This document shows, one piece after another, positions 1,204 through 27,109 of a stretch of DNA of 64,000 bases. This DNA is from Thermodesulfovibrionales bacterium (GTDB taxonomy: Bacteria > Nitrospirota > Thermodesulfovibrionia > Thermodesulfovibrionales > SM23-35). Numbering within the stretch: position 1 is the stretch's first letter; each line of letters begins with the position of its first letter. The notes below the pieces were generated by a model. That model was given only the letters and a program-made list of their open reading frames with translations. It did not search any database and was not told where the DNA came from. The position numbers were made by a program, and so were the translations under genes. The stretch covers positions 10,755-74,754 of the forward strand of contig CAVSHJ010000027.1 of NCBI GenBank assembly GCA_963727725.1, in the 5' to 3' direction.

Positions 1204-1207
1204 GGCA

Positions 1208-1276
1208 AAGGTAAAGGTACAGGCGCAGGTACAGAATACGGACAGATTTTCTTTACCTCTGCCTCTACCTTTACCT
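1208..1276. repeat. Imperfect inverted repeat (hairpin) between acsD and acsC
   Basis: aggtaaaggtacaggcgcaggta pairs with tacctctgcctctacctttacct. By my hand alignment about 20 of 23 positions are complementary, with a loop of about 22 nt. Confidence 0.6.
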
Positions 1277-1300
1277 AACTAATATTTTTTGGAGGTTCTT

Positions 1301-2656: not shown

Positions 2657-2711
2657 GAAGAGTTAGGAGTTAATAAGAGAGGTATAAGTGAAGACATGAA
2701 AGACATTATTC

Positions 2712-2788
2712 GTCATGCCCGAAATTCTCAGTCGGGCATCCAAGTTTCACGTGACCTCAAATGGATTCCCGCCTTCGCGGGAATGACG
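2712..2788. repeat. Two-module palindromic repeat (GTCATGCCCGAAAT..TCGGGCATCCA + TGGATTCCCGCCTTCGCGGGAATGAC)
   Basis: The same two hairpin modules in the same order and orientation recur at 52347-52418. The second module also occurs inverted at 52144-52170. Confidence 0.8.
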
Positions 2789-2992
2789 GTGAGGCGATCT
2801 TGCTTATGAACGCCTTAGTGAGAGTTGAGAGTTAAAAAAAGTTTATAGTTCCGGGCAGGTAATGTTAAAATAGAAAAAATACATTAATAAGTACAAATAA
2901 TCGCAGTTGTCAGCAGGGAAGGTTTGACCATCGGGGTGCGATCACCGTAAACTGAAGATGAAGACTGACAACTCTTTTTTGAGGAGGTAGGG

Positions 2993-5191: not shown

Positions 5192-5216
5192 AGTTCATTT
5201 ACAATGCAGTTAGTCT

Positions 5217-5306
5217 GTCATTCCCGCAAGTGAAGCGCGTCGGGAATCCTTTTGAAAAGGGATCGGAAGGATTCCGAGCATCCGCCTGAGGCGGACGGAA
5301 TGACAG
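5217..5306. repeat. Composite palindromic intergenic repeat (GTCATTCCCG...CGGGAATCC...TCCGCCTGAGGCGGACGGAATGACAG)
   Basis: Nested hairpins. It is collinear with the copies at 24342-24439 and 60031-60112. Confidence 0.8.
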
Positions 5307-5333
5307 GAATATGATGTTATTTTGGAGGTTTTT

Positions 5334-7320: not shown

Positions 7321-7356
7321 TAAAGCTGCAATTATGAAGACATTAATTGTAAAATG

Positions 7357-7446
7357 CCTCCTCTCCCTTTACCAAAGGGAGGGAATATACCCCTCTTTGG
7401 TCCGCCTAAGTCCGCCTCAGGCGGAGAAGGGGTGTGGGGAGATTTT
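7357..7446. repeat. Intergenic hairpin repeat cluster (CTCCCTTTACCAAAGGGAG; TCCGCCTCAGGCGGA)
   Basis: The TCCGCCTCAGGCGGA module is shared with 29137-29174, and variants occur at 5281, 24414 and 60212. It generates the spurious ORF 7223-7450. Confidence 0.7.
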
Positions 7447-7493
7447 TTGATAATGCTGCATTAACTTACCTATAGTTTTTTGGAGGGGTAGTG

Positions 7494-7982
7494 ATGAAAG
7501 TCCAAGAAATCGACGTTGACGAACAGATAGGCGAGGTGGGCAGGATACTCAGTGAACAGGAGAAGAAAAGAGGCGTACTTGTTCATGCACTGCAGCAGAT
7601 TCAGGAAGATGTCGGCTTTTTGCCCGAAGACGTATTGAGGACACTCTCCCAGAACCTTGATATTCCGTTGTCCGAGATTTACGGCGTCGCAACTTTTTAT
7701 AAGATGTTCCACTTCAAGCCGAGGGGAAAGAAAGTGGTGAGGGTATGCCTCGGGACAGCCTGTTACGTGAGAGGTTCAAAGAAGGTGCTCGCAAGGCTCG
7801 AAAATGAGTTTGAAGTCAAGAGCGGAGAAACTACTGAAGATCTTGCCCTGACCCTTGAGACGGTCGGATGTGTCGGATGCTGCGGACTTGCGCCTGTTTC
7901 TACTATTAATGATGAAGTCATCGGTGAAATAATCGGGGAAAAGAAAATTGAGAGATTGATAAGTTCGATAAGGGAAGATTAA
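7494..7982 (+). CDS. NuoE/HydC-like [2Fe-2S] thioredoxin-like subunit
   Basis: Motifs VCLGTACYVRG and GCVGCCGLAPV. A GGAGGGG ribosome-binding site lies upstream. Confidence 0.85.
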   Translation: MKVQEIDVDEQIGEVGRILSEQEKKRGVLVHALQQIQEDVGFLPEDVLRTLSQNLDIPLSEIYGVATFYKMFHFKPRGKKVVRVCLGTACYVRGSKKVLARLENEFEVKSGETTEDLALTLETVGCVGCCGLAPVSTINDEVIGEIIGEKKIERLISSIRED

Positions 7983-8018
7983 AAGAACGGTTTGCGAGGA
8001 CGTTAAGGGAGACTGTTC

Positions 8019-9896
8019 ATGGAACGATTAAGAAATATAGAGGATTTGAAGAATCTCAGGACACTCCTGATTGAGGATGTCTTTAGGCCCGGGAGAAATA
8101 TCGTAAAGGTCTGTTGCGGACTCCCGTGCAGCACCCTTGGCTCTCATAAGATTGCCGATGAACTTGAGGTAGAGGCAGAAAGAAGCGGCATGGATATCAA
8201 TATTGTAAAGACAGGATGTCAGGGCCTCTGCCAGAAAGGTCCGCTCTTACAGGTTGAACCACACGGGTATCTATATCAGAGGGTGCAGCCCGGAAGAGCA
8301 AACGAGATTCTTTCAAACACATTTGCAGCGGACGAACCGGTGAGGGAATTTACTTTACAGGGATATCTTTTTTGATAAGCCGAAAGCATTGCTGTCGGAA
8401 GTCCCTTTTTATAAGAAACAGCATGAAAGTTGCGCTCAGAAATACGGGCAACATTGATCCGTTTGACATCCATCATTACATAGCTGCGGCGGCTACAGCG
8501 CAGCTGAAAAGATGTTTTCCTCCATGAGCCCCGACCAGGTGATTGAAGAGGTGAAAAAGGCCAACCTGAGAGGAAGGGGCGGCGCCGGGTTTCCTGCCGG
8601 CGTTAAATGGGCGCATACCAAGAAAGCACCGGGCGAGAACAAATTGTTATAGCAAACGGGGACGAGGGAGACCCGGGCGCGTTTATGGACAGGTCGATCA
8701 TGGAAGGAGACCCCCACAGCCTGCTCGAAGGGATGCTCATCTGCGCGTACGCAGTTGGATGCGCATTATGGTTTCATCTATGTGCGCCATGAATATCCAC
8801 TGGCAATCAAGAATCTGAAGATTGCTATCAAACAGGCGGAGGAAGTCGGACTGCTGGGGAAGAATATCCTCGGCACGGGATTTGATTTTACTGTGCAGAT
8901 CAGGGAAGGCGCAGGGGCATTTGTCTGCGGTGAGTCCACCGCACTTGTCGCCTCGATCGAAGGGCGAGAAGGGGTTTCCCACACGCAAGACCGCCAAGGG
9001 TGTCGGAGACCAGGCGGAGGAGCATGGGGATATCCTTCGAATCTGAACAATGTTGAGACCTATGCATGTGTCCCCCCGATTATCGAAAAAGGCGCGGACT
9101 GGTTCCTGGGCATAGGTACCGCAGGGTTCGCCCGGCACAAAGGTTTTTGCCCTTGACCGGCAAGGTTAAGAATACGGGACTTGTTGAAGTGCCTATGGGG
9201 ATAACCCTGAGGGAGATCGTGTTCGATATCGGCGGCGGAATCATGGGAACAAGAAATTCAAGGCTGTTCAGACAGGAGGTCCTTCCGGAGGATGCATCCC
9301 GGAGCAGTATCCTTGATCTGCCCGTGGATTTCGACTCCCTGACGAAGGTCGGTTCGATCATGGGTTCGGGCGGCATGGTGGTAATGGATGAAGACAACTG
9401 CATGGTGGATATTGCCAAGTTCTTCCTCTCCTTTACACAGGCTGAGTCATGCGGAAAGTGTCCGACATGCAGAATCGGAACTTACCAGATGCTGCAGTTA
9501 CTCGAAAAGATAACATCCGGCAACGGAGAGAAAGGTGACATAGAGAGGCTCGAGAATATAGGAAGACTTGTAAAAACCGGATCTCTCTGCGGCCTCGGCC
9601 AGAGCGCGCCGAATCCTGTCCTTACCACGATCAAATATTTCCGTGAAGAATACGAAGAACATATTCATGATAAATACTGCAGGGCAAAGGTATGCAACCT
9701 CGGTATTTTTGTAATAGATCACAATGAGTGTATCCTCTGCGGCCTGTGCAAGCAGGCATGCGCCTTTGACGCGGTGAAGGAGACGAAGGAGAAGTTTCTT
9801 TATCGACCGCGACTACTGCATGAAATGCAAGTCGTGCTATTATGCGTGTCCTGTGAATGCAGTGAAGGTCGTAAGGAAAATGTACGGGCGGCTTGA
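8019..9896 (+). pseudogene. NuoF/HydB-like NAD(P)H-binding flavoprotein subunit, fragmented by at least 10 frame disruptions
   Basis: NuoF blocks are found in order but spread over all three frames: N-terminal 2Fe-2S domain (8019-8375), [131 protein letters not shown], then two ferredoxin CxxCxxCxxxCP motifs. Confidence 0.8.
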
Positions 9897-9951
9897 AGAA
9901 GAATTGAAGATAGCGCCTGAAGGCATGGATTTCATCGAAAGGAGGATAAGT

Positions 9952-10359
9952 ATGACATTAGGAGATATCCTGAGTTCGAAGCCGTATGGGATAGTAAAGA
10001 TCAGCGGGAATTGCAGTATTGCGGATGCGGTGAAGATGATGAGTGATAAGAACGTGAGCGGAATATTCGTCGTAGATGAAAAGGACAAGCTCATAAGAAT
10101 CTTCACCGAGAGGGACATCGTCCGGTGTGTTTTTAACAATACTCCTACAGACGAGTATTTACAGAACCTCATGATGCGTGACATTACCATATTCGACCCG
10201 TCGACAGAGGTGAGTGCGGCAATAGCCATCGCCTCAAGGAAGAAGATAAGGCACCTGCCGGTTGTTGAAGGAGAGAAGATTATCGGCATGGTTACATTCA
10301 GAGACCTGGTCTCCTATCTCCTTCCGGAGATCTGCTATATGGCGGAGACGATGTACTAA
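9952..10359 (+). CDS. CBS-domain pair protein
   Basis: ATG at 9952 preceded by GGAGGA. The sequence is typical of tandem CBS domains (…ADAVKMMSDKNVSGIFVVDEKDKLIRIFTERDIV…IRHLPVVEGEKIIGMVTFRDLV). The ORF track fuses it to the nuoF-like 3' end, probably an artefact. Confidence 0.75.
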   Translation: MTLGDILSSKPYGIVKISGNCSIADAVKMMSDKNVSGIFVVDEKDKLIRIFTERDIVRCVFNNTPTDEYLQNLMMRDITIFDPSTEVSAAIAIASRKKIRHLPVVEGEKIIGMVTFRDLVSYLLPEICYMAETMY

Positions 10360-10428
10360 CGCCGTGCTATAAATATTCAGAGATATTAAGAGTGAGAGGC
10401 CAAACGGAAACAGATATCTGGAGGAACG

Positions 10429-11046
10429 ATGCGTGAAGAGCGTGAACCCGGTGAAAAGGGGAAAAGAGTCGAAGATATAAGGAAAGAAGCTGAAGAGAAG
10501 GCATGTTCTGTTCAAAGTGCCCTCTATTTTATCGGAGAGTTTATTGCAGGGCCGATGTGCGGCAAGTGTTATCCCTGCTCCCTGGGCACCGGGGAAGCGA
10601 AGATCAGATTAATGAGGATCAGCCGCCATTCAGAAAATGCAGCGGAGGCTGATATCCAGGCGTTAAGGAGAATAGGGGTGAATATGGCGGCGGGAGCATC
10701 CTGCAAGAAAGGCAGGGACGCGGGCCAGTTCATTACGGAAGTACTTTCCGGGTCGGACGAAGAAATCAGGCAGCATCTTGCCGGTATTTGTCCGAAAAGG
10801 GAATGCGCCGACCTTATCCGGTACATAATTCAACCTGAACTCTGCATCATGTGCGGTAAGTGTTCGGAGGTATGTGAGGGCGGCGCCATAATAGGCGAGA
10901 AGAAGCAGCCTTACCTTTCGGGTTTCCTTCCTTTCGAGATCAGGCAGAAAAGATGTACAAAGTGCGGTGTGTGCGTCAGTGTTTGTCCCACGGGGGCGAT
11001 CGTGGCCATAACGGTTCCGAGAGAAGAGTTGGTCGGCAAAGAGTAA
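10429..11046 (+). CDS. NuoF C-terminal (N3 4Fe-4S)-like domain fused to a 2x[4Fe-4S] ferredoxin
   Basis: PMCGKCYPCSLGTGEA resembles the NuoF ESCGKCxPCR motif. CIMCGKCSEVCE and CTKCGVCVSVCP are ferredoxin motifs. Confidence 0.7.
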   Translation: MREEREPGEKGKRVEDIRKEAEEKACSVQSALYFIGEFIAGPMCGKCYPCSLGTGEAKIRLMRISRHSENAAEADIQALRRIGVNMAAGASCKKGRDAGQFITEVLSGSDEEIRQHLAGICPKRECADLIRYIIQPELCIMCGKCSEVCEGGAIIGEKKQPYLSGFLPFEIRQKRCTKCGVCVSVCPTGAIVAITVPREELVGKE

Positions 11047-11072
11047 CTTCATAAATATAGAGGAGGCATTGA

Positions 11073-13094
11073 ATGGAGAAACTGGTGAAACTGAAAATAG
11101 ACGGGAAAGAGGTCGAAGCACCGGCGGGCATAAACCTCATAGATGCGGCGGAGCTCGCAGGGGTTCATATACCAAATCTCTGCTACCTCAAAGGCATGAA
11201 GGGGATAGGTGCGTGCAGGCTCTGCCTGGTTGAAGTTGAAGGACTGAAGGCGCCTGTGATCGCATGCAATACCAAAGTCAAGGAGGGCCTTGTTGTCACC
11301 ACAAAGACCGATAAGATACAGGAAGTGAGAAAATTTGTGATAGATCTTATCCTGTCCATGCATCCTCTTGACTGCATGACCTGTACAAAGGCCGGCGTAT
11401 GCAACCTCCAGAAATATGCGTACGATTTCGAACTCAAGGAATCCTCTTTTACAAGGAAGAAGTTCGGATATCCTACTGATCAAGCAAACCCGTTCATAAA
11501 GAGGGACCCTGAATACTGTATCCTGTGCGGGAGGTGTGTCAGAGTTTGTAAGGAACAGGGGACCGATGTCCTCGAATTCATGGGCAGGGGTATCGAATCC
11601 AAGGTCGTTACCGCAAACGACAAACCGCTTCAGGAGTCCGGGTGCACATTCTGCGGGAGTTGTGTCGATGCATGCCCTGTGAATGCCCTCCTTGAGTCCG
11701 ACAGGTGGCGCAAGGGAAGAGAATGGGAGTATGAAAAAGTCTATTCCGTATGCCTTTTATGCGGCAATGGATGTGATATCACTGTGAGCACGAAAGACGG
11801 CAGAATACAGAAAATAAGCGCAGGAGCGCCGGTTGGTTCTGCAGAGAAATATATCTGTGCCTACGGCAGGTTCGGCTTCGACTGCGTTGAGGCGGAGACA
11901 AGGCTCACCTCGCCTATGAAAAAGATCGACGGCGAACTCAGGGAGACGACGTGGGATGATGCGCTCGGTATTGTGGCCGGTAAGCTCAAGAAGGCCGGCA
12001 GTGAGGCAGGGTTTATAAGTGTGGCAGGCATAGAGAACGAAGACGCCCTGGCCATGAAGAAGCTTGCAAAAGACGTAGTGAAAACAAAGAACTTTGATAC
12101 GACCCTGAGCCTCTATGCGGACGCTGATTCTCTTAGAAAGTCTCAGACAGCCGACATCGACAAGGCGGACCTGATTCTGCTCGTCGGTCTGAACCCGTCC
12201 CAGTGGGAAAGGGTCCTGCCGGCACTGGATGCGGTAGTGAGGAGGAGAGTGAACAGGGGAGCAAAGCTGATCGTCATAAACTCCTCTGATACGAGGATTG
12301 CCGGGGCGGCAACGGCGAATCTCCGGGGAGACGAGATATCGATCCTCAAAGGAATCGCAAAGGCCTTGATAGAAAAGGGTGTGAAAGCAGACAAGAAGTT
12401 GGAGTCGGATGTAAGAGATGCCGAGGTTACGGAAGATATTGAAAAGGCTGCGGCCCTCATCTCCGGGGCCGGTGAACCTCTCATATTCTCCTCTCCGTCG
12501 CTGTTTGAGGCATCAGCTAATATCGCCCTGCTGAAGGGAAAAATCATTTCCGTTGGAATTGAGAGCAACGCACGGGGCATTGCTCTTATGGGTTTGACAA
12601 CAGAGGGGAAGGGCTATAAGGAGATGGTCTCCCGAGGAATGAAATTGCTCTATGCAGTGGGGGAGGTACCTTTAAAGAAAAGACCGGAAACTGATTTCCT
12701 TGTTGTGCAGAACTCTCATCTGACAGAGATTGCAAAGCAGGCCGATGTCGTACTGCCTTCCTCAACCTTCCTCGAGTCGGCCGGCACAATGATTGATTAT
12801 ATGGGAAGGCTGAAGTTTCTTCCTGAAGTACTGGAGCCGCAGGGAGAATCCAGGAGCCATAGGGATATTTTTATCAGCATTGCGAAGGTGATGGGCGCGA
12901 AGTTGAAAATGCCGGCTGAGGCTGATGTCAATAAGGCTGCAAAAATGAAGGCGAAGTTGTCATATAGCCCGTTTGCCAGGAAAGAAGAATTCGACATTTC
13001 TCCGGGCGAAATAATCGAATCCGTGAACGCATCCGTTATCAACGGTTCAAGACTCCTGTGGCTTAAGGAGACCGAAAAGGCGGTAGCCGTCTAA
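11073..13094 (+). CDS. NuoG-like / formate-dehydrogenase-alpha-like FeS subunit (2Fe-2S, 4Fe-4S, molybdopterin-oxidoreductase-type domain)
   Basis: N-terminus KIDGKEVEAPAGINLIDAA…GACRLCLVEV, then HPLDCMTCTKAGVCNLQ, CILCGRCVRVC, CTFCGSCVDACP and CLLCGNGCDI. I did not see an obvious catalytic Cys/Sec motif. Confidence 0.75.
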   Translation: MEKLVKLKIDGKEVEAPAGINLIDAAELAGVHIPNLCYLKGMKGIGACRLCLVEVEGLKAPVIACNTKVKEGLVVTTKTDKIQEVRKFVIDLILSMHPLDCMTCTKAGVCNLQKYAYDFELKESSFTRKKFGYPTDQANPFIKRDPEYCILCGRCVRVCKEQGTDVLEFMGRGIESKVVTANDKPLQESGCTFCGSCVDACPVNALLESDRWRKGREWEYEKVYSVCLLCGNGCDITVSTKDGRIQKISAGAPVGSAEKYICAYGRFGFDCVEAETRLTSPMKKIDGELRETTWDDALGIVAGKLKKAGSEAGFISVAGIENEDALAMKKLAKDVVKTKNFDTTLSLYADADSLRKSQTADIDKADLILLVGLNPSQWERVLPALDAVVRRRVNRGAKLIVINSSDTRIAGAATANLRGDEISILKGIAKALIEKGVKADKKLESDVRDAEVTEDIEKAAALISGAGEPLIFSSPSLFEASANIALLKGKIISVGIESNARGIALMGLTTEGKGYKEMVSRGMKLLYAVGEVPLKKRPETDFLVVQNSHLTEIAKQADVVLPSSTFLESAGTMIDYMGRLKFLPEVLEPQGESRSHRDIFISIAKVMGAKLKMPAEADVNKAAKMKAKLSYSPFARKEEFDISPGEIIESVNASVINGSRLLWLKETEKAVAV

Positions 13095-14205: not shown

Positions 14206-14372
14206 AAGCTATAGCTTCAATAAGGAAAGAAGAAATGCGCAGCAAAATCGCCGGATACAAGAAAAGAGCTATATATTAAATAGTTTGCGACTGTGCATCT
14301 CCTCTGAGGAATAAAATGTATTTTTCTCCGAATATTAAAATCTGGCGTAATTTATGCTTTTGCTATCAGAAT

Positions 14373-15371
14373 ATGCGGAAAAGTACGATCTGTCTTGCAG
14401 CGGTTCTTTCTATCGCAGTTCTATTTACTTTCGAAATGACAGAAGACGGCCTGGCAGTTGTCGCCGGAGACTGTAATGCCTGTCACACGGTTTATCCGGG
14501 GATGACAGAGAAGACTTTTCGTGCGAAGCCGTTCGAATATGTCTCCAGAGAGGTATTCTGTGTGAAATGCCACTCGAGCAATACGAGCGACACAATTATG
14601 ACGCTCGGCGGGAACCGGGTCCCTGTTGTTTTCAATAACTCAAAGCCTGTCAAACCCTTGGGGGGTGGAAATTTTTACTATGTGGCCTTCAGTGGAGACA
14701 GGAAAGGACACAATGTTAACGGGGTCTCATCCCGGGACACGGAATTCTCCGGTTTGCCCCCGGCCTACAGAAGGTCATCTGATCCTTCGTCCATAGGATA
14801 CAACCCTCAGAAGCCTCTGACGTGTGCCGGTTCAAACGGCTGTCACGGAAACAGGAATATTGAAGACCCGTTTGAGGCCGTCTTGGGCTCTCATCATGCG
14901 ATCAACATACCTGCTGACGGCAGCACAACGGCCAGGAGTTACAGGTTCTTGAGGAATTCCGACGCGCTGAAGGGCGTTATCGGCCTTGAGGACGACGAAT
15001 GGAATCAGAACGCCACTCCGAGAAAACATAACGAATATACTTCTTCTATAGACGTACTCTGCAGAAGCTGCCATGGCGGCCTTCAGAGCGGACATGCGGG
15101 CAGGCAGTTTAATCATCTTGCCGGAGTTCCCCTGCCGGCGAACGGGGAGTATATGAAATACGAGATTTACGATCTCGACGCGCCGGTTGCCAGAGAAACG
15201 GTTCCCCTGGTCTCAAGCGATGTTGTCACACCGGGTAAAGACCTGGTAACATGCCTCTCCTGCCACGTTGCCCACGCAAGTCCCTACGACTCTGAGTTAA
15301 GATGGGACTATGACAGCATCTTTACGGAAGGAGAGAGAAGCGGTTGTCTGATATGTCATACAGGCAAATGA
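14373..15371 (+). CDS. OmcS-like six-haem c-type cytochrome, paralog 1
   Basis: Signal peptide MRKSTICLAAVLSIAVLF. Haem motifs CNACH, CVKCH, CAGSNGCH, CRSCH, CLSCH, CLICH. Family blocks GGGNFYYVA, GHNV, SYRFL, HNEY, CLSCHVAHASPY, LRWDY. Confidence 0.75.
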   Translation: MRKSTICLAAVLSIAVLFTFEMTEDGLAVVAGDCNACHTVYPGMTEKTFRAKPFEYVSREVFCVKCHSSNTSDTIMTLGGNRVPVVFNNSKPVKPLGGGNFYYVAFSGDRKGHNVNGVSSRDTEFSGLPPAYRRSSDPSSIGYNPQKPLTCAGSNGCHGNRNIEDPFEAVLGSHHAINIPADGSTTARSYRFLRNSDALKGVIGLEDDEWNQNATPRKHNEYTSSIDVLCRSCHGGLQSGHAGRQFNHLAGVPLPANGEYMKYEIYDLDAPVARETVPLVSSDVVTPGKDLVTCLSCHVAHASPYDSELRWDYDSIFTEGERSGCLICHTGK

Positions 15372-16445
15372 CTACGCAGCTTCTTTTTTCTCTTTGCGCA
15401 CTGCTCTGCGCTCTCTGCTTGTTTTTTGCCCGAGCCTGACGCCAGGGTCAGGGGCAGATGCAAGGACTGCCACTACGTGCGCGGCGGTCAGGGTGTAGCG
15501 GAAACCATCTGTTTTATCGACTCGAAAATAAGTGCCTGGCATGTCACGGCCGGGATCCGGGCAGGGAGTGAGAATATCACCACCATAGGGAAAACGAGAT
15601 TCCCCCAGGTGCTTCACCATATGCAAAACAACGACCTGGCGGGCGGAAACTTCTATTACGTCGCGGACACTTTTAATCCCGATTATTCCCGGGGACATAA
15701 CATAGCGGGAATTTCACGTCCAGCAAAATCCTCCGATGAACGTGCCGCCCGGCTTCATGAAAAACGTTTTGATTCCCGGAAGCACAGGTCCCGCCTATTG
15801 GCCCGAATCAGACGTCAGCTGAATTGTTCGGGGACATGGGGCTGCCATGGAAACAGGACCATAGAAGACCCTTATAAGGCAATCGCGGGGGCTCATCATG
15901 AGGAAGACAGCACAATTGATGGATCAACAGTCGGCAAGAGTTATCGCTTCCTTTACGGAATAAAAGGTAAAGAACACCCTGAGTGGGAGTACCTGGCTAC
16001 CCCTGTTAACCATAACGGCTATGAAGGCGCAATTGACGCCAACAGCATGGACACTATCAGCTATCTCTGTGGTGAATGCCATGCAAAATTTCATCCCAAT
16101 CCGAATCTCGGCGGAAGGGAGGAGGTCGGTCAGGCGTATGACACCGCTGTCTGGCGAAGGCATCCGGTTGATATTGCATTCAATTCCGTGCGGGGAGGTT
16201 TCGCGAATTCCGAGTACGAAGGTTACGTGCAATACAGCCTTGAAGCTCCCGTAGCCTATGACAAACCTACCGGAAGAGAGGATGCCGTTAATTCCGGCAG
16301 CGTGATCATGTGTTTGTCATGTCACAGGGCACACGCGAGTCCATACCCCAGTATATTGAGATGGGATTATTCCAAGATGACCGCAGGCACAGGTAAATCA
16401 GGCACAGGATGTTTTGCATGTCACACAAAGAAAGGGCATGAATAA
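15368..16445 (+). pseudogene. OmcS-like six-haem cytochrome, paralog 2, with multiple frame disruptions in the 5' half
   Basis: ATG at 15368 overlaps the paralog 1 stop (ATGA) and encodes the signal peptide MTTQLLFSLCALLCALCLFFARA. CKDCH, CLACH and AGGNFYYVAD..GHNIAGIS then lie in alternating frames. From CSGTWGCHGNRT onward the ORF is intact to CFACHTKK. Confidence 0.7.
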
Positions 16446-16934: not shown

Positions 16935-18044
16935 ATGAGAAAGTTATCGAATGTCATGTTTTTGACTCTGATCGGTCTGGCGCTGATTGCCGGAAGAGCT
17001 TATGCGATTACGGGCGTATGTTCAAATTGCCATACCATGCACAACAGTCAGAACGGGCAACCGATGGCAGACCGGGCGGACCCGTACGCATATCTGCTGA
17101 GGGCAAGCTGTGTGGGCTGCCATACAGGCACTACGGGTGAGACGAACAGTTTTGGCGCTCCCATTGTCTACCATACGACCAACCCTATCGATCAGGGAGG
17201 AGGCAAGACCCTTGCGGGCGGCGATTTCTATTGGGTTGCTACGGGTGGAGGCCATACAGACAGCATGGGTCACAATGTCAGCGGAATTGCAGCGGAGGAC
17301 CAACTGATCGGTGGAAGTGCGGCTGGTTTTACGCCACCTGGCTGGGATCCTGCTGCTACCCCCGGAGCCAATAGCGATGGTCAGGTTAACGATGGAGGGG
17401 CAACGTGGACGACGCAGCTGACTTGTGCCGGAACGAACGGTTGTCACGGGACTCACAGTGCTGCCGCTGACGCCGGCATCACGGGCGCCCATCACGGCAA
17501 CGTGAATGGGACATCCAATCAGGCAAATAGTTCAACTACGGTAGACAGTAGTTACAGGTTCCTGAGCGGTATCTATGGATTGGAGAATGTCGACTGGAAC
17601 TATAATGAGGATAGCTCAACCCACAATGAATACTCTGGTGTGGATTCCCCGGGCGGCAGAGACGCGGGAACGGCTTATGCGAATAAACATACCATAAGCT
17701 ATTCATGTGCCGAATGTCACGGTTTCTTCCACAGCAAGATAGCCAGCACTTCAGGCGGAGGCACTCCCTGGCTGAGGCATCCGACGGACATCGCTCTTCC
17801 GAATAAGACCGAGTATGCGGCTTACACTACCTACAGTGTTGAGGCTCCTGTCGGAAGGTCTACGGTTCCTGCAACCAGCGGCAGTACGGTAACTCCCGGA
17901 ACGGATACCGTCACCTGCATTTCATGCCACAGGGCTCACGGCTCGCCACAGGCTGACCTGTTGAGATGGGACTATTCACAAATGGTAGCGGGCGACAGTT
18001 CTAAAACAGGAGGCTGTTTCGTCTGCCACACAACTAAAAACTGA
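16935..18044 (+). CDS. OmcS-like six-haem c-type cytochrome, paralog 3 (intact)
   Basis: AGGAGGTG ribosome-binding site and signal peptide ending AYA|ITG. Haem motifs CSNCHTMHNS, CVGCH, CAGTNGCH, CAECHGFFH, CISCHRAHGSP, CFVCHTTKN. Also AGGDFYWVA, GHNV, SYRFL, WLRHPTDIALP, LRWDY. Confidence 0.8.
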   Translation: MRKLSNVMFLTLIGLALIAGRAYAITGVCSNCHTMHNSQNGQPMADRADPYAYLLRASCVGCHTGTTGETNSFGAPIVYHTTNPIDQGGGKTLAGGDFYWVATGGGHTDSMGHNVSGIAAEDQLIGGSAAGFTPPGWDPAATPGANSDGQVNDGGATWTTQLTCAGTNGCHGTHSAAADAGITGAHHGNVNGTSNQANSSTTVDSSYRFLSGIYGLENVDWNYNEDSSTHNEYSGVDSPGGRDAGTAYANKHTISYSCAECHGFFHSKIASTSGGGTPWLRHPTDIALPNKTEYAAYTTYSVEAPVGRSTVPATSGSTVTPGTDTVTCISCHRAHGSPQADLLRWDYSQMVAGDSSKTGGCFVCHTTKN

Positions 18045-18161: not shown

Positions 18162-19103
18162 ATGAAATCGCTGAGAGTAATTATTCTTTATATAATCGTC
18201 GGTCTGTTTCTTGCGGGACCCGGGAAAGCAAGTCCCCAGACCCGGGATCTTTCGGTAGCCTATATTGACAGCATTACTCAGGACGAGGAAGAAGGAAAGA
18301 TATATTTCCCTTCCGAAGTCTTCGCAGAAGCGGTCAGAAAAGAAATCTACATTATAGACAGCAGGTCCAGAATTATCATATACACATCCGACTTCTTCCC
18401 GGTTTTTACCCTGGATAAAGGTTATGGCGTTGAAAACCCTCAGGGGCTGACCGTGGATACGGAAGGCAACCTTTATGTGGCCCAGAGCGCAACAAAGGAT
18501 AACCCGAGACACAGGATATCTGTGTTCAACGCATGCCTTAAGTGGCTGCGTGACATCTACCTGGAAGGATTTGAAGGGGCTGAAACTTTTGTCCCTTATC
18601 GTATGGCCCTCGACAAGAAAGGGAATCTCTATGTAGCTTCTTCGTATTTCCCGGGCATCCTCGTGCTTAACAGCCAGGGCCGGCTTTTAGAGGTCTTTTC
18701 TGTTGAAGACGAAGGGAAGAAGGTGAAAGTCAATAATGTGACAGTGGACGAAGCCGGCAGGATTTTCATCGTAAGCGAAGAAGAAGGTCATATCTATGTA
18801 TACGATGAAAACAGGAGATTTCTTTTCAGATTCGGCGAGAAGGGAGGCAGCTCCGGCAAATTGAGTCGTCCAATGGCGGTGGCAACCGACAATCGCAGTG
18901 GCAGGATTTTTGCAGTGGATTATATGCGTCATACGGTTTCGATTTATGATCAGGACGGCAAATACCTTTCTGAGTTCGGTGGGCTCGGCTGGGGTGAGGG
19001 CTGGTTCCAGCACCCAAAGGACATAGCAGTTGATTCGTCCGGCAGGATACTCGTCGCAGATACATTTAATGACAGGATAGAGGTGTTTAAAGTAGATGAA
19101 TAA
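18162..19103 (+). CDS. Secreted NHL-repeat beta-propeller protein
   Basis: Signal peptide plus repeated NHL-like blades (GLTVDTEGNLYVA, MALDKKGNLYVAS, VTVDEAGRIFIVS, MAVATDNRSGRIFAVD, PKDIAVDSSGRILVADTFNDRIEVF). Confidence 0.8.
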   Translation: MKSLRVIILYIIVGLFLAGPGKASPQTRDLSVAYIDSITQDEEEGKIYFPSEVFAEAVRKEIYIIDSRSRIIIYTSDFFPVFTLDKGYGVENPQGLTVDTEGNLYVAQSATKDNPRHRISVFNACLKWLRDIYLEGFEGAETFVPYRMALDKKGNLYVASSYFPGILVLNSQGRLLEVFSVEDEGKKVKVNNVTVDEAGRIFIVSEEEGHIYVYDENRRFLFRFGEKGGSSGKLSRPMAVATDNRSGRIFAVDYMRHTVSIYDQDGKYLSEFGGLGWGEGWFQHPKDIAVDSSGRILVADTFNDRIEVFKVDE

Positions 19104-20670
19104 GGATTACAGCAGAGTAATTATTTCACTTTCAGCTCTATGCTCTTTGCTTATATTCGTAGCCGGTTGTGCTTCTGTGGAGGAGAATATAGCCCCGCAG
19201 GGGCCGTCCGACGGACAGATCACAGTATTTCTGAAAGGGCCTGACAAGACGGCAACGGATATTACATTCGACCTCACTGCTGTCAATATTTTGGCGGAAG
19301 ACGGGACACCCGGGGAGACTTCGAGAACTCCCATAGCTATAAACTCCCTTGCACTCACAGGCCACCAGGTCTGTCTGGGCGAGAGATACATCCCCGAAGG
19401 CAGATATAAAAAGCTTCAACTAATAGTAAAACAGGCCCTGATCAACAAGAAAGGCAAAACGGCTAACCTGGCACTGCCGCCCCAGGGAATCGAAATTGAT
19501 ATAGACGTAACAGTAAAGAGGAATGAGAACACATCTCTTTTTTTAAGCTGGGACCCGGATGCTTCTGTTAAAGAGGGATACCTGTTCAGCCCGGTGTTCA
19601 CAGTTAGAGGCCAGGTACCTGAATTAAGTAACTTGCTGGTCTATGTGACGAATGAAGCCTCAAATAACGTCTCGGTCATCAACAGGCAATCAGAGGAAAT
19701 AGTAGCAACGGTACTGGTGGGGAAAGGGCCGAGAGGTGTCACATCGAGTCAGGGGAAGGAACATCCAAGGGTCTTCGTGGCGAATTCGGGCTCCAACAGT
19801 CTATCGGTGATAGACCCTACTATTAATAAGGTCGAGGTCGAAATACCCCTGAGGTTCGGCAGGCAACCGGAAGGCATAGCGGCATTCGATGTGGCACCGG
19901 GGAAAGAACTTATCTTCGTGGCAAACTACGGTTCTAACAACGTGTCCGTTATCGACAGGGCCACCCATCAGGAGGTGGACAAGATAAGTGTGGGAGAGGG
20001 CCCGATAGCGGTCGCAGTTGACCCGCCTGCAGAAAGTCTTTCACCGACAAGGTTTCTGAGTTTCGAAGATCTGAACACTCTGAAGGCTTACCGCGCAAAA
20101 TTCTTCAATGTATATGTTGCAAACAAGAATTCAAAGGATGTCTCTATCATCAGAATGGATGCAATGAACGGCACGCCCGATGCGGTTGTCCGCGTCAATG
20201 CCGAATGGGGTCCCATCTCGCTCACGGTGGACCCTCAGAGAGCCAGGGTATATGTGGCGAACTACTATTACGACAACCTTTCAGTCATAGACATCCTGCA
20301 GGTTATCAGGGGGAACATCCCCGGATCTGTCAGTGAGATCATGGGTGCCGGTACATCTTTAGTGGGCATTATTCCGGAACCGGAACTTGACAGGATGTAT
20401 CTTCTAAAGGAGTCTACAGATGAGATATTGATCATCAGACCTTTTTCAGAGGCGTTCAGTTCGCAGAGGACCACTACGTCACCGGTGGTCGGTACGATAC
20501 CCGTGGGCAATTCTCCGAGGTCTTTTATCATGGACCCCGAAGGCAGAAAATTGTATGTAGTCAACAGGGGTTCGGACAATGTCTCGGTAGTGGATAAGAC
20601 CACCCGGGCAGAGGTACAGGTGATACCGGTGGGTAAGAAACCTTATGGCGTAGCGATGTTCCCTTTTTAG
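19096..20670 (+). CDS. Lipoprotein with a DUF4382-like N-terminal domain and a YVTN-type beta-propeller
   Basis: Lipobox LIFVAGC. At least six repeats of the form xVYVxNxxSNxVSVID…VGxxPxGxA. Confidence 0.75.
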   Translation: MNKDYSRVIISLSALCSLLIFVAGCASVEENIAPQGPSDGQITVFLKGPDKTATDITFDLTAVNILAEDGTPGETSRTPIAINSLALTGHQVCLGERYIPEGRYKKLQLIVKQALINKKGKTANLALPPQGIEIDIDVTVKRNENTSLFLSWDPDASVKEGYLFSPVFTVRGQVPELSNLLVYVTNEASNNVSVINRQSEEIVATVLVGKGPRGVTSSQGKEHPRVFVANSGSNSLSVIDPTINKVEVEIPLRFGRQPEGIAAFDVAPGKELIFVANYGSNNVSVIDRATHQEVDKISVGEGPIAVAVDPPAESLSPTRFLSFEDLNTLKAYRAKFFNVYVANKNSKDVSIIRMDAMNGTPDAVVRVNAEWGPISLTVDPQRARVYVANYYYDNLSVIDILQVIRGNIPGSVSEIMGAGTSLVGIIPEPELDRMYLLKESTDEILIIRPFSEAFSSQRTTTSPVVGTIPVGNSPRSFIMDPEGRKLYVVNRGSDNVSVVDKTTRAEVQVIPVGKKPYGVAMFPF

Positions 20671-20759: not shown

Positions 20760-23058
20760 GTGAAAATCCATACTCTCTGCCCTCTGCTCTGTGCTCTCTG
20801 CGCTACGCTTTTTTATTTTTCTCTGGCATACGCCGAAGGACCGAGTGGCTTGCTTAATTTAAATTATACAGATACAAAGCAATTCGAAGACGGGAAGAAA
20901 ACCGGGTCATCTGACAACTTTTTCCAGAATTATTACTTCCGTCTGGACAAATCAATTACCCCGATAATTTCTTATCAACTGAATATCCGTTCAACATTCT
21001 TGAACTCCAGTATGACGGATGCTCAGGGTGACACTACGAAGAGTTACCAGAGAGCGATAGAGCCTGATCTCGAAATCTTCTTAAGGAATCCCGTATACAC
21101 ACTGGATGCAGGGTATCGCCGCCTTGAGCAGTGGTCAACCGCGAACCTGTCTGATGAGGGCAGAAGAACAACCGACTACTACTATTCCCGTTTCACTGTA
21201 ACCCCGGGTGCGTTGCCGTCCGTATCACTGCAATTTGACAGGCAGAAGGACTACGACCATCTGTCAGTGAGCAAACTCGACACAACAGACACAAAATATT
21301 CTGTAAACAGCTGGTATGACCTGCTGTATAGGGATGTGAAGTTCTCATATAATGCCACTTACACAAGGGATGAGACAGAGACGCCGTTAGCTGTCGTATC
21401 TAAAACTACGAGTGACAACTTTAACGGCTCGTATAACTTCAATTACAACAAGTCCCTCATGGGCGGAATGATTAATATGCTGGCCGGCTACCAGGGAAAT
21501 TACTTCCGAAACAAGACTGTTGAATTTGCTGCCCAGTCAGGCAGTGTGTCATTAGAACGCACACCGTCACTGGGCATGTACGGTCCGGGTACGCAACTTC
21601 AGCCGGACGTCGATACGCTTACTTCAACGGCTACCCTGAGCGATAACATCTATAATGTGCCGGCCACTACCGCTGCGGGAACCATCAATATCGGCCAGAA
21701 CGGAAAGAAATTCAATAATATAGGAATCCAGTTATTTTCATCTGCCAGGCCTGTCGACACGATATTCATCTATGTGAATAAGGATGCCACATCGGATACA
21801 AATCTCACAAGCGTAGGCAACTGGAAGGCTTTTCGGAGCGATTTCAATCTCCCTTCCACATGGACGGAGATAACTATACAGAGCGTAACACTCTCGGTAT
21901 ATGATCCCCTGAATAACGTATTTCGCTACGAGATAAAGTTGTCCGCTCCCCTGAACAATCTTTATTTTAAGGTGGTGAATATGGAGATTGCATCAGTCAG
22001 CGATGTCTTTGTCACGGAAATAGAGGCATTTGGCACAGATGTCGTGCCGGGTTCAGGGAAGACTACCGATATATCAACCTTCTTTGCCCAGGGCATTAAC
22101 CTCACCGCGAGCATAAGACCTATGCCAAGGCTGACTTTTGCACTGAACTACTTTCTGAACAGATCCGATCAGGATCCGGCGTCGATCTTCCGTTCCATCG
22201 CAGGGGCTTTTTCGAATATATTCACTAAATCCATAAAGGGGAACGGTGACATATTGAGCAGCAATGTAACAAGGACTTTCGGATTGAGTTCAACATGGCT
22301 CACTCACCGGTTGCTCACGACAACGGTGCGGTTTGACAGGAACCAGGCCTTCGACAATAAGAATGAGACTGACATCAGGTCGGACACCTATCAGTTAGCC
22401 TTCCATTCATCACCGCTGCCGACTCTCGATACGAACCTGTCATTCATCAGGACTTATACATATAACTTTGACAGAAAAAATTCCCTCAACAGTCTGTACC
22501 TGTTGACCGTGGGGTCGAGACTTTACCGTGGTGTGAACATGATTACCGATATCGGATATACGGCAATAAAACAATACGCGGATCAATCCTCGCAGCAGCC
22601 GACCACCGGTAAGCACCGAATCTTCAACCCGTTACATCAGGGGGACTCTCGATGCACAGCTTACCGCGAAAGTGTCCGCAAACCTCACCTACGGCTTGAG
22701 CAGAACGTCAGGAGATACGTCTTCGAGTTCGGACGACGCTTCTTTGATAATAACTTACCGTCCGGGTAAATTTTTCAGTGTATCGGGCAATTTCGGCGTC
22801 TCCGGTACCGACAGTGAAACGACCAGCCTGGAAGGGGTGCTTATTGACTGGCTTTTCCTGCCTGCTGTAAGAATGAATATGAATTACCAGCATACAAACA
22901 AGGAACAGGAGAGAATGGATTCATTCAGCGGCTATGTTATCTGGTACATAACGAAGTTTTTGGATTTGCAGTTCACGTACGGATATTTGCGGGATGTGAA
23001 AGAGACGAAGAACGAAATATATTCCATTGGTGGAAATGTCATATGCAGACTCTGGTAA
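20760..23058 (+). CDS. Large outer-membrane beta-barrel protein (about 765 aa), one frame disruption near 22590-22620
   Basis: GTG start and signal peptide ending AYA|EG. The sequence has alternating-polarity, Y/N/T/S-rich strand patterns and ends in …VICRLW (aromatic terminus). ORFs 20760-22769 and 22672-23058 join through the frame reading …TRYIRGTLDAQLTAKVSANLTYGLS. Confidence 0.65.
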
Positions 23059-24292: not shown

Positions 24293-25463
24293 GAAAAGAG
24301 ACAAAGTGCAAAAAGCTGTATACAACGACATTAATTTTATTTCATTCCCGCAATCCCGAATGCTTTCGGGAGCGTCGGGAATCCTTCTTCGAAAGAAAGA
24401 AAGATTCCGGACATCCGCCGGAGGCGGACGGAATGACAGAATACGGCTGACTTATGTCGCCATTCTGTTGACGCTGTGTTCTCTGCTATCCGTGGTCTGC
24501 ACGGTTCATGCTGCGCAGACAGACGTGAAAGAGATAATCGCGTTGTTCCCTTTTGAAAACCTCAGCGAGGATAAAAATGCTCTTGCAGCCGTTATGCCGG
24601 CAGTGAAACTCAGACTGGAGGCGAAGGGATTTGAAGTGCTGGATGAAGAGAAACTGAATAATTTTTTACTCAGGGAAAGGATCAGGAGCACCGGTTATGT
24701 TTCAAGGGATGTTGCCAGGAGACTTGGGGAACAACTGAATGTGAAGGCAGTTCTGGTGGGGTCTGTTAATTCATTCTTTACCGGAGATGATCCGAGAATC
24801 GGCCTTTCGGCGCGTCTTATCAATTCTTCGGATGGCGGTATTTTGTGGGCGAACCATTCTTCTGCTTCCGGAGATGATTTTACGACTATCCTGGGGTTAG
24901 GCAGAGTAACTGCAATCGACAAATTGTCTTCCAGGGTGGCAGATAAGTTGCTCGATTCCTTTCGAACCGCTCCTGCGGATAAGGAGATGGAGTCGACGTA
25001 CAGGATAGCGGTAATGCCTTTTCAGAACAGCAGCAAGGTGAAGGACGCGGGGTCGATAGCTACCTATATATTTATCGTAGAACTCTTTAAGGATAAGAAA
25101 TTCATACCCGTAGAATACGGCGAGGTGAGACGGTTAGTGGTTGATCTGCGGGTAAGGGAAAGAGGGGAACTGGACTTTAAGAAAACAGAAAGGATATCTG
25201 AATCTTCCGGGGTGGACGGAATCCTTGTGGGCACAGTTGATATTTACAGGGAAAAGGATGGTACCGCTCCTCCCGAGGCCGAGATAAGCGCGAGATTAAT
25301 AGATGCGAGGAGAGATAAGATTCTGTGGTGTGACAGCTTCAGGTTAAAAGGTGACGACGATATAATCGTACTCGACTGGGGAAGGATAAATACCGCAGAA
25401 AATGTGGTCTATAAAGCGGCATCAAAACTGCTAAAGGGAATGGGTAAAGCAAAATGGAATTAG
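24255..25463 (+). CDS. Secreted protein with two LpoB/DUF799-like domains (true start uncertain, probably after about 24440)
   Basis: Two ALFPFENLS / IAVMPFQNSS modules. The first 60 codons or so of the ORF translate the intergenic repeat. The signal-like segment LTYVAILLTLCSLLSVVCTVHA follows the repeat, and I found no in-frame ATG there. Confidence 0.6.
   Translation: MSELPSGRSINVRKRDKVQKAVYNDINFISFPQSRMLSGASGILLRKKERFRTSAGGGRNDRIRLTYVAILLTLCSLLSVVCTVHAAQTDVKEIIALFPFENLSEDKNALAAVMPAVKLRLEAKGFEVLDEEKLNNFLLRERIRSTGYVSRDVARRLGEQLNVKAVLVGSVNSFFTGDDPRIGLSARLINSSDGGILWANHSSASGDDFTTILGLGRVTAIDKLSSRVADKLLDSFRTAPADKEMESTYRIAVMPFQNSSKVKDAGSIATYIFIVELFKDKKFIPVEYGEVRRLVVDLRVRERGELDFKKTERISESSGVDGILVGTVDIYREKDGTAPPEAEISARLIDARRDKILWCDSFRLKGDDDIIVLDWGRINTAENVVYKAASKLLKGMGKAKWN
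24342..24460. repeat. Composite palindromic repeat lying inside the annotated 5' end of ORF 24255-25463
   Basis: tcattcccg…cgggaatcc…tccgccggaggcggacggaatgacag plus the tail aatacggctgacttatgtcgcc. The tail is also found at 42640-42668. Confidence 0.8.
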
Positions 25464-27109
25464 AGTCGCTAATAGTAAGGATCGGACGAGGAACAGGTAA
25501 GAGGATCTTACTGCTTACGATTTACTGTTTACTGTTTACGGTCTTTAATGGTTGTGCTTCGGTGTCGCAAAAGGAGGCGGTCCTCGCAGTTGTAGACAAT
25601 GAACCTGTAACAGAGGGAGACCTCAGGTATTCTCTTAGTATAGCTCACCGCAGAGAGGACCTGTCTTCAGCAGGTACCCTGAATCTGTCGGAGTATGTCC
25701 GGAAGCTTGTCGATGACAGATTAATTATCAACGAAGCCCGCAGTGCGGGCATGGATAAATATCCCGAGGTGCAGCAGGCGGTGGAGGCATACGTCCTGAG
25801 AGAATCCGTTGTCCGCCTCCATGACGAGGAGGTCGTGCGGAAGGTATCTGTGACCGAAGAGGAAATAAGAAATTATTACAAGAAGAATTATGAGAAGTTC
25901 AGACTTGGTTTAATAGAACTGAAATCGCAGGAAGAAGCGGAGGAAGTCTCCCGCCTGCTTCATGAGGGCGGGAATTTTAAAGAGCTTGCACGGAAATACA
26001 GTTTGCAATCTTCGCAAAAAGATAACGGGGAGATTGTTCTCACAAGAAGAGCGGTGCTGCCTGAATTCGAAAAGGTCATTTCAGCCCTGCGTCCTGAGGA
26101 AGTGAGCGACGTTGTAAAAGTGGGGGACAGGTGGTACATCGTGAAACTGATGGGAAGGGAGGAGGCGCCTGAAAAGGAATTCCAACATGCAAAAGGTAAC
26201 ATGGAGAGAGCTGTCAGGAAGCAGAAGGAACAGGAGAGAGGCGATGAGTATCTGAAATACCTCAGGGGAAAAGCCGCCATAAAGACAGACAGAGAGCTTC
26301 TCTCACAGATCAAACTTGACGGTGAAACCAAAGAATTAGAAAAATGGAAAAGAAATGCAACGACATTGGCGGCTGTAGACGGGTCGGTCCTTGCCGTCGG
26401 AGATCTTGTTGAAATAGCCGGGTCTTCTTTCAGTAAATCACCGGAAAACATTGTAAATAACTGGATTGATTGTAAGGTGATAGACCATGAGGCCCTCAGA
26501 AGGCATTATGAAACAGGAGCCGACCTGAAGGAAATGGTCCGCCGGTATGAAGACCAGCTTCTGAAGAGTACTTTTATCAAAAGGATTATCATGCCCCGGA
26601 TTGTTGTCACCGACGAAAAGCTCAAAGAATACTATTCGAAAAATCAGAGTAGTTTTCTCAAACCGGTGCGGTACAAAATCCGGCAGATAATCGTCAAGTC
26701 CATGGATGAGGCCCAGGAAATACTGGTTAACCTTCAGAGTGGCGCGGATTTTGCGTGGGTGGCAGGAAAGAAATCGACCGATGCCGCAGCTTCAAAAGGC
26801 GGAGAAGCCGTATGGGTCAGAAAGGAAGAATTGCCAAAATCTTTCAGCGAGATTGTAGATACCATGAATACAGGGAATCTGAGTCCGATAGTGAAGCTTG
26901 ATTCTTCTTATGGCATATTCAGAATAGAGGAGAAAACGGCGAAAGAACCTGAAGCAGTTGATAAAGTAAAAGAGGCTGTCTTCAGAGCGTGTGTGGGCGA
27001 GCAGGTGGACAACCTGCTGGGCAGGTATGTAAATCAACTGAGGGCAGGCGCGAATATAAGAGTATATAATGACGAAATACGGAAGATGGAGGAGAAATTT
27101 AAGCGCTAA
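25454..27109 (+). CDS. SurA/PrsA-like peptidyl-prolyl isomerase lipoprotein with two parvulin (PpiC) domains
   Basis: Probable lipobox VFNGC and two parvulin-like segments (…GNFKELARKYS…VVKVGDRWYIVKL; …GADFAWVAGKKS…SSYGIFRIEE). Confidence 0.7.
   Translation: MELESLIVRIGRGTGKRILLLTIYCLLFTVFNGCASVSQKEAVLAVVDNEPVTEGDLRYSLSIAHRREDLSSAGTLNLSEYVRKLVDDRLIINEARSAGMDKYPEVQQAVEAYVLRESVVRLHDEEVVRKVSVTEEEIRNYYKKNYEKFRLGLIELKSQEEAEEVSRLLHEGGNFKELARKYSLQSSQKDNGEIVLTRRAVLPEFEKVISALRPEEVSDVVKVGDRWYIVKLMGREEAPEKEFQHAKGNMERAVRKQKEQERGDEYLKYLRGKAAIKTDRELLSQIKLDGETKELEKWKRNATTLAAVDGSVLAVGDLVEIAGSSFSKSPENIVNNWIDCKVIDHEALRRHYETGADLKEMVRRYEDQLLKSTFIKRIIMPRIVVTDEKLKEYYSKNQSSFLKPVRYKIRQIIVKSMDEAQEILVNLQSGADFAWVAGKKSTDAAASKGGEAVWVRKEELPKSFSEIVDTMNTGNLSPIVKLDSSYGIFRIEEKTAKEPEAVDKVKEAVFRACVGEQVDNLLGRYVNQLRAGANIRVYNDEIRKMEEKFKR

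Follow-up and report, generated by a model that had tools for sequence, protein, structure and literature searches.

A large clade of OmcS-like multihaem cytochromes with a CX5CH motif at the third haem site, a probable departure from the canonical spacing of c-type haem attachment

Attachment sites for c-type haem that depart from CXXCH are known from the Desulfovibrio c3-type cytochromes, which contain CX3CH and CX4CH sites, and from cytochromes of the MccA type, which contain CX11CH, CX15CH and CX17CH sites. A survey published in 2024 lists CXCK, CX2CK, CX3CH, CX4CH, CX11CH, CX15CH and CX17CH as the described motifs, a list from which CX5CH is absent, and notes that pentahaem sequences occur among the homologues of OmcS (PMC11492766). 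In OmcS of Geobacter sulfurreducens (GSU2504; PDB codes: 6EF8 and 6NEF), a hexahaem nanowire subunit, the haems follow the order of their motifs, neighbouring haems touch at 4.1 Å or less, and the twelve axial ligands are all histidines, one of which is donated by the next subunit, with the N-terminal His16 ligating haem 5 of its neighbour (PMC6584659). Here we analyse a stretch of 64,000 nucleotides from a Thermodesulfovibrionales bacterium (assembly GCA_963727725.1, contig CAVSHJ010000027.1, positions 10,755 to 74,754), hereafter called the window, which encodes four paralogous OmcS-like cytochromes with the sequence C-x-G-x-x-G-C-H, a CX5CH motif, at the place of the third haem site of OmcS. 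All coordinates of the window are counted from its first nucleotide.

DA_402 of Desulfurivibrio alkaliphilus (WP_013162640.1) has been described as a member of a sister clade of OmcS and is the most transcribed extracellular cytochrome of this bacterium during iron-oxide respiration coupled to sulfide oxidation (PMC12545173). The same study, published in Nature in 2025, counted 'CX2-5CH' motifs and took the motif of DA_402 as haem site 3, and its source data place OmcS 'LHCS---SCHDPHGKY' over DA_402 'MLTCAGAKGCHGTRS', followed by SGAHH, SSYRFL and SHNEYYG (PMC12545173). The genome of D. ferrophilus has been searched with CXnCH, where n is 2 to 5 (Deng et al. 2018). A full-text literature search found no paper that uses CX5CH or CXXXXXCH as the term for a haem motif, and the relevant literature was reached only through the range notations CX2-5CH, CX3-5CH and CXnCH (n=2-5). 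The initial annotation of the window, made from its sequence, had described the spacing of five residues as not known to be characterised. This stands insofar as the spacing is missing from the 2024 list and no paper using the term was found, but the motif had already been printed and counted for DA_402 and the spacing had been included in the search of Deng et al. The feature has therefore been handled tacitly before, and the window proteins are new members of a published clade.

The four paralogues are about 350–385 residues long each, and they and their motifs are located as follows.

14316–15371, plus strand: OmcS-like paralogue 1, with CNACHTVY as its first haem motif; CAGSNGCH at 14823–14846, plus strand, from the six-frame scan
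15372–16445, plus strand: OmcS-like paralogue 2, with several frameshifts in its 5' third; CSGTWGCH at 15825–15848, plus strand, from the six-frame scan
16935–18044, plus strand: OmcS-like paralogue 3, 369 residues, with a Sec signal peptide, five CxxCH and one CX5CH, and an N-terminal CHTMH block; CAGTNGCH at 17424–17447, plus strand, aligned with haem site 3 of OmcS
30518–31675, plus strand: OmcS-like paralogue 4, with a motif identical to that of D. alkaliphilus DA_402; CAGAKGCH at 31055–31078, plus strand, from the six-frame scan

The bases at 17424–17447, TGT GCC GGA ACG AAC GGT TGT CAC, read C-A-G-T-N-G-C-H within the open reading frame (ORF) of paralogue 3. Translation of the window in six frames followed by a regular-expression scan for C.G..GCH yielded exactly these four matches, all at one aligned column of the paralogues; by a rough estimate from typical residue frequencies, about 0.005 matches per 128,000 translated residues are expected by chance. 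The initial annotation had placed the motif at the same aligned site of the four paralogues and had described it as followed by G(N/D/T)(R/H) and then by a GAHH or GSHH block, and both descriptions agree with what is seen in all four. The host ORFs show no further odd spacing, and each contains five CxxCH motifs, except that only four are in frame in paralogue 2 as it is read here. Paralogues 1, 3 and 4 have five CxxCH and one CX5CH, and these sites are collinear with the six of OmcS.

A family profile built from 45 members was compared with the PDB sequences by hmmsearch and matched OmcS only (6EF8/6NEF; 6ef8_A, E=1.3e-18, query 28–354 against OmcS 8–350). At site 3 the alignment places 'qltCaGtyGCHG' over OmcS 'QLHCSSCHDPHG', and the third site of OmcS is CSSCH in this as well as in the published alignment, in agreement with the initial annotation, which had taken OmcS to be ordinary at this site. 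The remaining five CxxCH motifs are collinear with those of OmcS, and so are the blocks CHTMHNS, which contains the counterpart of OmcS His16, GGDFxWV, YRxL, RHP and CLSCHRAH. The last CxxCH of paralogue 3 lies four residues before the C-terminus, as in OmcS. Since the profile alignment is collinear over all six haem sites and the other blocks, the label OmcS-like given in the initial annotation is justified, and the proteins are, judged from their sequences, most likely exported six-haem cytochromes of a large OmcS sister clade. A single-sequence phmmer search of the PDB sequences with paralogue 3 missed OmcS and returned noise only (BIR domains, E of about 0.5), and searches of Pfam and NCBIfam gave generic multihaem matches (Paired_CXXCH_1 and Cytochrome_C7) and no family-level model.

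A homologue search returned about 3,000 relatives, the best 120 of which all have exactly one C-x-G-x-x-G-C-H and almost always five CxxCH. In an exhaustive profile search over 1.84 billion representatives of clusters at 50% identity, the threshold of E<=1e-3 was passed by 1,493 clusters and that of E<=1e-30 by 535, and C.G..GCH is present in 138 of the best 150 representatives. The clade signature, which consists of C-[AS]-G-x-x-G-C-H together with G-[AS]-H-H, S-Y-R-F-L and H-N-E-Y, is found in all four window paralogues and in 368 of 405 pooled non-identical relatives. These counts show that CxGxxGCH defines a clade, a question that the initial annotation had raised, and that both glycines are conserved in it. 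C164, G166, G169, C170 and H171 of the motif are invariant in the 45-sequence alignment, and C164, C170 and H171 are 100% conserved among the 368 clade members. Each of the other five proximal histidines is retained by 97% or more of these members, and each of eight further histidines by 96% or more, so that the 14 conserved histidines of the clade are sufficient for 12 axial ligands.

When a single genome was scanned for each GTDB species, 524 relatives were found. Among the best 79 of these loci, the nearest to the window belong to Nitrospirota/Thermodesulfovibrionia, being metagenome-assembled genomes at 58–61% identity, and many others belong to Desulfobacterota (among them Candidatus Desulfofervidaceae, Desulfurivibrionaceae and Desulfuromonadales). 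The same 79 loci further include Thermodesulfobacteria, Aquificales, Deferribacteres, Chloroflexota and Spirochaetota, and two of them come from cultured strains, Thermodesulfatator autotrophicus S606 and Thermodesulfobacterium hydrogeniphilum DSM 14290.

The way in which site 3 varies among the relatives is informative about the role of its two cysteines. Among the 405 sequences of the pool, the distal first cysteine alone is present in 368, a first cysteine at the canonical distance alone in 15, and both in none, indicating that each lineage keeps exactly two cysteines and the histidine. The canonical paralogues read x-x-G-C-x-G-C-H (for example PGCQGCH) or C-A-G-C-H at the aligned site; in the related loci such a paralogue, which has six or seven CxxCH, often comes after the CX5CH gene. 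In an OmcS-rooted neighbour-joining tree, the canonical paralogues form one clade and the CX5CH sequences the remainder; since the internal branches of this sequence tree are very short and one long-branch CX5CH sequence lies outside the main group, we make no claim about strict monophyly of the CX5CH sequences or about the direction of change. A few relatives with longer loops have 10 (CAGSTGAIITGCH), 11 (CAGEPNNQGRWGCH) or 12 (CSGGSGSGAGSLGCH) residues between the cysteines on C-[AS]-G and G-C-H stems, and such variation in length on kept stems is expected of a free loop held between two fixed cysteine anchors. One relative reads CASTTGCH, in which the first glycine is missing. The relatives with a longer loop, with a replaced histidine or with the site deleted are the following.

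P0123/L038 (1879–3033)
P0254
P0212
P0147
P0242

In three members of a clade of paralogues with seven motifs, a further non-canonical motif lies just upstream of a canonical site-3 CxGCH or CxKCH. The extra upstream motifs of P0210, P0256 and P0265 are CGDPNTSCH (CX6CH), CTLSTCH (CX4CH) and CSNNDSCH (CX5CH), showing that odd spacings recur in this region of the superfamily.

Structure prediction by AlphaFold2 (AF2) gave a poor model of paralogue 3 in a first run with 45 sequences and the signal peptide included (pLDDT 59) and a confident one in a second run with 122 sequences and the mature protein (pLDDT 84.9, pTM 0.84). In the second model the site is predicted to be a β-hairpin formed by the strands T-C-A and G-C-H-G and the turn G-T-N with a pLDDT of 92–95, the strands being E139–141 and E145–148 in mature numbering. 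The two cysteines would accordingly be cross-strand neighbours in this model, and the tip of the hairpin would be able to grow.

The invariant C...CH, the either/or position of the first cysteine, the tolerance of different loop lengths on constant stems and the presence of more conserved histidines than the axial ligands require together make it quite likely, as far as sequence comparison and the model can tell, that these are six-haem proteins of the OmcS family that carry a normal two-thioether, histidine-ligated haem 3 on an expanded hairpin loop. In this arrangement C-x-G-x-x-G-C-H would be the attachment site of haem 3, and the stretch between the cysteines, three residues longer than in CxxCH, would form the tip of a tight, glycine-hinged β-hairpin. 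At the hairpin base the two cysteines would lie opposite one another, each would form a thioether with one haem vinyl, and the next histidine would be the proximal iron ligand. Since neighbouring haems of OmcS touch at the distance given above (PMC6584659), a subunit that lacked haem 3 would break the continuity of the wire, and retention of haem 3 would leave the stack from haem 1 to haem 6 unbroken. Covalent binding of haem, attachment by two thioethers, assembly into filaments and the identity of the acting lyase are inferred. It also seems reasonably probable that CX5CH, in the form C-[AS]-G-x-x-G-C-H, is a genuine and hitherto uncharacterised c-type haem motif, found in roughly a thousand protein clusters, in which the thioether cysteines stand across a β-hairpin and not one helical turn apart, which is matured by a general synthase and the scaffold of which tolerates loops of 10–12 residues. 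CX5CH may be among the commonest natural departures from the CxxCH spacing.

Several observations weigh against a two-thioether haem 3 on a hairpin. The AF2 model was built without haems, the cross-strand cysteine pair of the predicted hairpin would have good geometry for a disulfide too, and Foldseek searches of the PDB did not recover OmcS from either AF2 model. P0147 reads C-AGTNG-C-Q, in which the proximal histidine is replaced by glutamine, and in P0242 the whole site is deleted together with the HH block, so that some relatives do without an intact site. The window proteins have GAHH and HNEY blocks that OmcS does not have, and since the middle of the protein thus differs between them, the distal ligand of haem 3 is not transferable by homology. 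The family profile found no structure of any clade member in the PDB, and no experimental haem count or peptide mass was found for the clade.

How the site is matured is a separate matter, for which most likely the general cytochrome c synthase of the organism, here ResB/CcsA, would be responsible and not a dedicated one. The window contains the following System II cytochrome c synthase genes.

39400–40836, minus strand: ResB/CcsB of the System II cytochrome c synthase
38316–39399, minus strand: CcsA of the System II cytochrome c synthase, in two overlapping ORFs (38815–39399 and 38316–38846), with a WWD motif near 38525

The CX15CH site of MccA needs CcsA1 and the CXXCK site of NrfA needs NrfI or NrfEFG. 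Since other non-CXXCH sites have such lyases, and since the ResB/CcsA pair lies in the window about 6–9 kb downstream of the cytochrome cluster, the CX5CH site could bind haem and yet need a specialised synthase, a proposal that concerns maturation only and is compatible with a two-thioether haem 3. We regard it as rather unlikely. The CX3CH and CX4CH sites are matured by general systems, and the pair in the window is read from the other strand and separated from the cluster by five unrelated genes, namely those for a PilZ protein, a GNAT acetyltransferase, an aminotransferase, an epimerase and an M48 peptidase. In the 79 related loci, examined with flanks of up to 10 kb on either side, ResB is found within 10 kb of a family gene in none and CcsA in two, whereas the companion genes described below for propellers, lipoproteins and a peptidyl-prolyl isomerase are linked in 27–48 of the 79. 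The window pair was rejected as a dedicated lyase on this synteny, and the hint at a dedicated haem lyase in the initial annotation thus receives no support from the gene neighbourhood. The window ResB/CcsA pair is probably the general haem lyase, located outside the cytochrome cluster.

Single-cysteine xxxCH cytochromes are known from euglenozoans, and haem 3 might likewise be held by a single thioether from C170 together with H171, with C164 serving another purpose, for example as a thiol left free, in binding a metal or in contact between subunits. C164 is three residues further from the CH than a normal first cysteine, it is off the ancestral position in that the first cysteine of the sister paralogues is at the canonical distance, and in the hairpin model it may point otherwise than a cysteine one helical turn away would. 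However, C164 is conserved without exception in the clade, the absence of any relative with both first cysteines is the pattern predicted by the swap of one thioether donor for another, and the CX10-12CH variants retain both cysteines. A single-thioether haem 3 is therefore improbable.

It is also conceivable that no haem is bound at the site, the two cysteines forming a structural disulfide that staples the hairpin or a metal site, so that the protein would be a true pentahaem cytochrome. Cross-strand cysteine pairs form disulfides readily, pentahaem sequences have been recorded among OmcS homologues (PMC11492766), and the relatives with glutamine for histidine or with the site deleted would agree with such an arrangement. 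This explanation is very doubtful, because the invariant H171 directly follows the second cysteine, the site is homologous to a haem site both of OmcS and of the canonical sister paralogues, and with only five haems per subunit a chain of closely touching haems would be interrupted. The pentahaem count of the survey itself probably comes from no search for CX5CH (PMC11492766), and the pentahaem OmcS homologues recorded there are probably members of this clade that have been under-counted. Although several genes in the window look frameshifted, a sequencing or assembly artefact has a negligible probability, since the motif is an in-frame difference of three codons found in four paralogues and hundreds of independent assemblies, and its conservation, including that of the two glycines on which the initial annotation had based the same argument, already refutes it.

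Paralogue 3 is followed by the genes listed below in the order given, paralogue 4 lying between the 16-haem cytochrome and the seven-CxxCH cytochrome.

18162–20670, plus strand: two β-propeller proteins, one of the NHL six-blade type and one of the YNCE/lactonase type with DUF4382 (Pfam)
20760–23058, plus strand: conserved protein with no Pfam match, in two overlapping ORFs (669 and 128 residues); one 770-residue gene in the closest contig, L080
23043–25463, plus strand: three CsgG/GNA1162/LpoB-like lipoproteins (Pfam)
25454–27109, plus strand: periplasmic PpiC-type peptidyl-prolyl isomerase (PPIase) with two rotamase domains (Pfam)
27174–30477, plus strand: two multihaem cytochromes with 26 and 16 CxxCH, encoded by adjacent genes
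31721–33025, downstream of paralogue 4: cytochrome of 434 residues with seven CxxCH and a very Cys/His-rich C-terminal tail (…CLSCHTHNAHCGNLWNCLNCHYHNSYARCFACTWCAFGGVHGHAF)

The seven-CxxCH cytochrome does not score as a member with the OmcS-like profile. The block CHTMHNSQN is present in paralogues 3 and 4, and its histidine is absent from paralogue 1, which reads CHTVY, and from the damaged paralogue 2. Paralogue 1 thus lacks a histidine matching OmcS His16, whereas the clade has CHTMH with this histidine 97% conserved. Given the absent counterpart of His16 in its sequence, the polymerisation of paralogue 1 could differ.

The 5' third of paralogue 2 (15372–15830) is frameshifted relative to its orthologue in locus L002, and a tblastn search with this orthologue switches frames. 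One frame holds the signal peptide MTTQLLFSLCALLCALCLFFARA together with CLACH, the haem-2 motif, and another holds CKDCH and the remainder, with an additional frame shift near 15718. As read, the signal peptide and the haem-2 motif are gone from the frame, leaving four CxxCH and one CX5CH. Paralogue 2 is either a pseudogene or affected by indel errors of the assembly. Two genes outside the cytochrome cluster are split in a similar manner: the CooS/prismane gene at 5322–7320 is read as two overlapping ORFs (Pfam profile positions 2–402 and 394–513), and so is the CcsA gene at 38316–39399 (profile positions 2–104 and 86–212). The split CooS gene, the 770-residue gene, CcsA and paralogue 2 together point to recurrent single-base indels in this sequence. 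The region upstream of the cluster (262–13094) contains a Wood-Ljungdahl CO dehydrogenase/acetyl-CoA synthase block with CdhD-type subunits, the ACS beta subunit and CooS, as well as a NuoE/F/G-like iron-sulfur and molybdopterin oxidoreductase. This block indicates a strictly anaerobic organism with the acetyl-CoA pathway.

Pipelines that count only CxxCH or the listed motifs score the clade as pentahaem. Under such a score the haem chain looks broken, and haem counts as well as extracellular electron transfer models are distorted. Should haem binding at the site be demonstrated, CX5CH would join the list of accepted motifs and the clade would provide a natural substrate for testing the spacing tolerance of CcsBA or Ccm, while the biology of the protein, a wire subunit of the OmcS type, would be unchanged. 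For the counting of haems the result is a helpful correction, and it offers a clean, testable case of synthase specificity, but it does not amount to a new kind of system.

The neighbourhood of the window recurs in the related loci and resembles several described gene clusters. Among the 79 loci, the NHL propeller recurs in 48, the YNCE propeller in 27, the lipoproteins in 35 and the PPIase in 32; homologues of the 26-haem and the 16-haem cytochrome are neighbours of the family in about 41, and homologues of the 434-residue cytochrome are found in 14. The Geobacter omcS-companion (osc) operon, as far as it is cited in PMC13194489, has components with roles in folding (OscH), secretion (OscEFG) and morphology (OscD). 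The propellers, lipoproteins and PPIase of the window fit this description, the comparison being one of described roles only (PMC13194489). The three lipoproteins are candidate counterparts of the OscEFG secretion components, and the PpiC-type PPIase is a candidate for a folding factor of the OscH kind.

The D. ferrophilus island DFE_0450-0457 has the same order as the window, namely a cytochrome, a six-blade propeller, a seven-blade propeller, lipoproteins and a PPIase, and the order of the propeller genes in the window is that of DFE_0450-0452. A CX5CH-type site 3 in DFE_0450 and DFE_0464 is suggested by synteny only. Deletion of DFE_0450/0464 left Fe(III) oxide reduction by D. ferrophilus going. 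The pair of 26- and 16-haem cytochromes at 27174–30477 resembles the pair that has been described in SEEP-SRB1 bacteria, which are partners of methane-oxidising ANME archaea (Skennerton et al. 2017). Two loci of Candidatus Desulfofervidaceae, which are sulfate-reducing ANME partners, contain genes with CAGTYGCH (L030 and L039), and OmcS-like genes of this kind are among the highest expressed genes in syntrophic partners (Murali et al. 2023).

OmcS and the window proteins share six collinear haem sites, the last motif at the extreme C-terminus and, as candidates, osc-type companion genes nearby. They differ in the third site, which is CSSCH in OmcS and C-x-G-x-x-G-C-H in the window proteins, and in length, OmcS having 407 mature residues and the window proteins about 345. 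DA_402 has LTCAGAKGCHG, identical to paralogue 4, and shares SGAHH, SSYRFL, SHNEYYG and CHTMHNS with the clade. It differs in an extra seventh motif, which its authors discounted, and in its organism and paralogue arrangement, and its haem occupancy has been modelled only, by AF2 and docking (PMC12545173).

The spacing of five residues in the window clade is off the published list of motifs, and the loop between its cysteines drifts among 5, 10, 11 or 12 residues (PMC11492766 for the list). As judged from general knowledge, the c3-type and MccA-type sites keep two cysteines and a histidine and have a lengthened loop between the cysteines, just as the sites described here do. In contrast to the MccA-type sites, which have an adjacent dedicated CcsA, the CX5CH family has none linked by synteny among the 79 loci. 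The two kinds of site would also differ in fold, since the window clade is predicted to have a β-hairpin at this position, whereas the c3-type and MccA-type sites are generally known to form a helical turn with a bulge.

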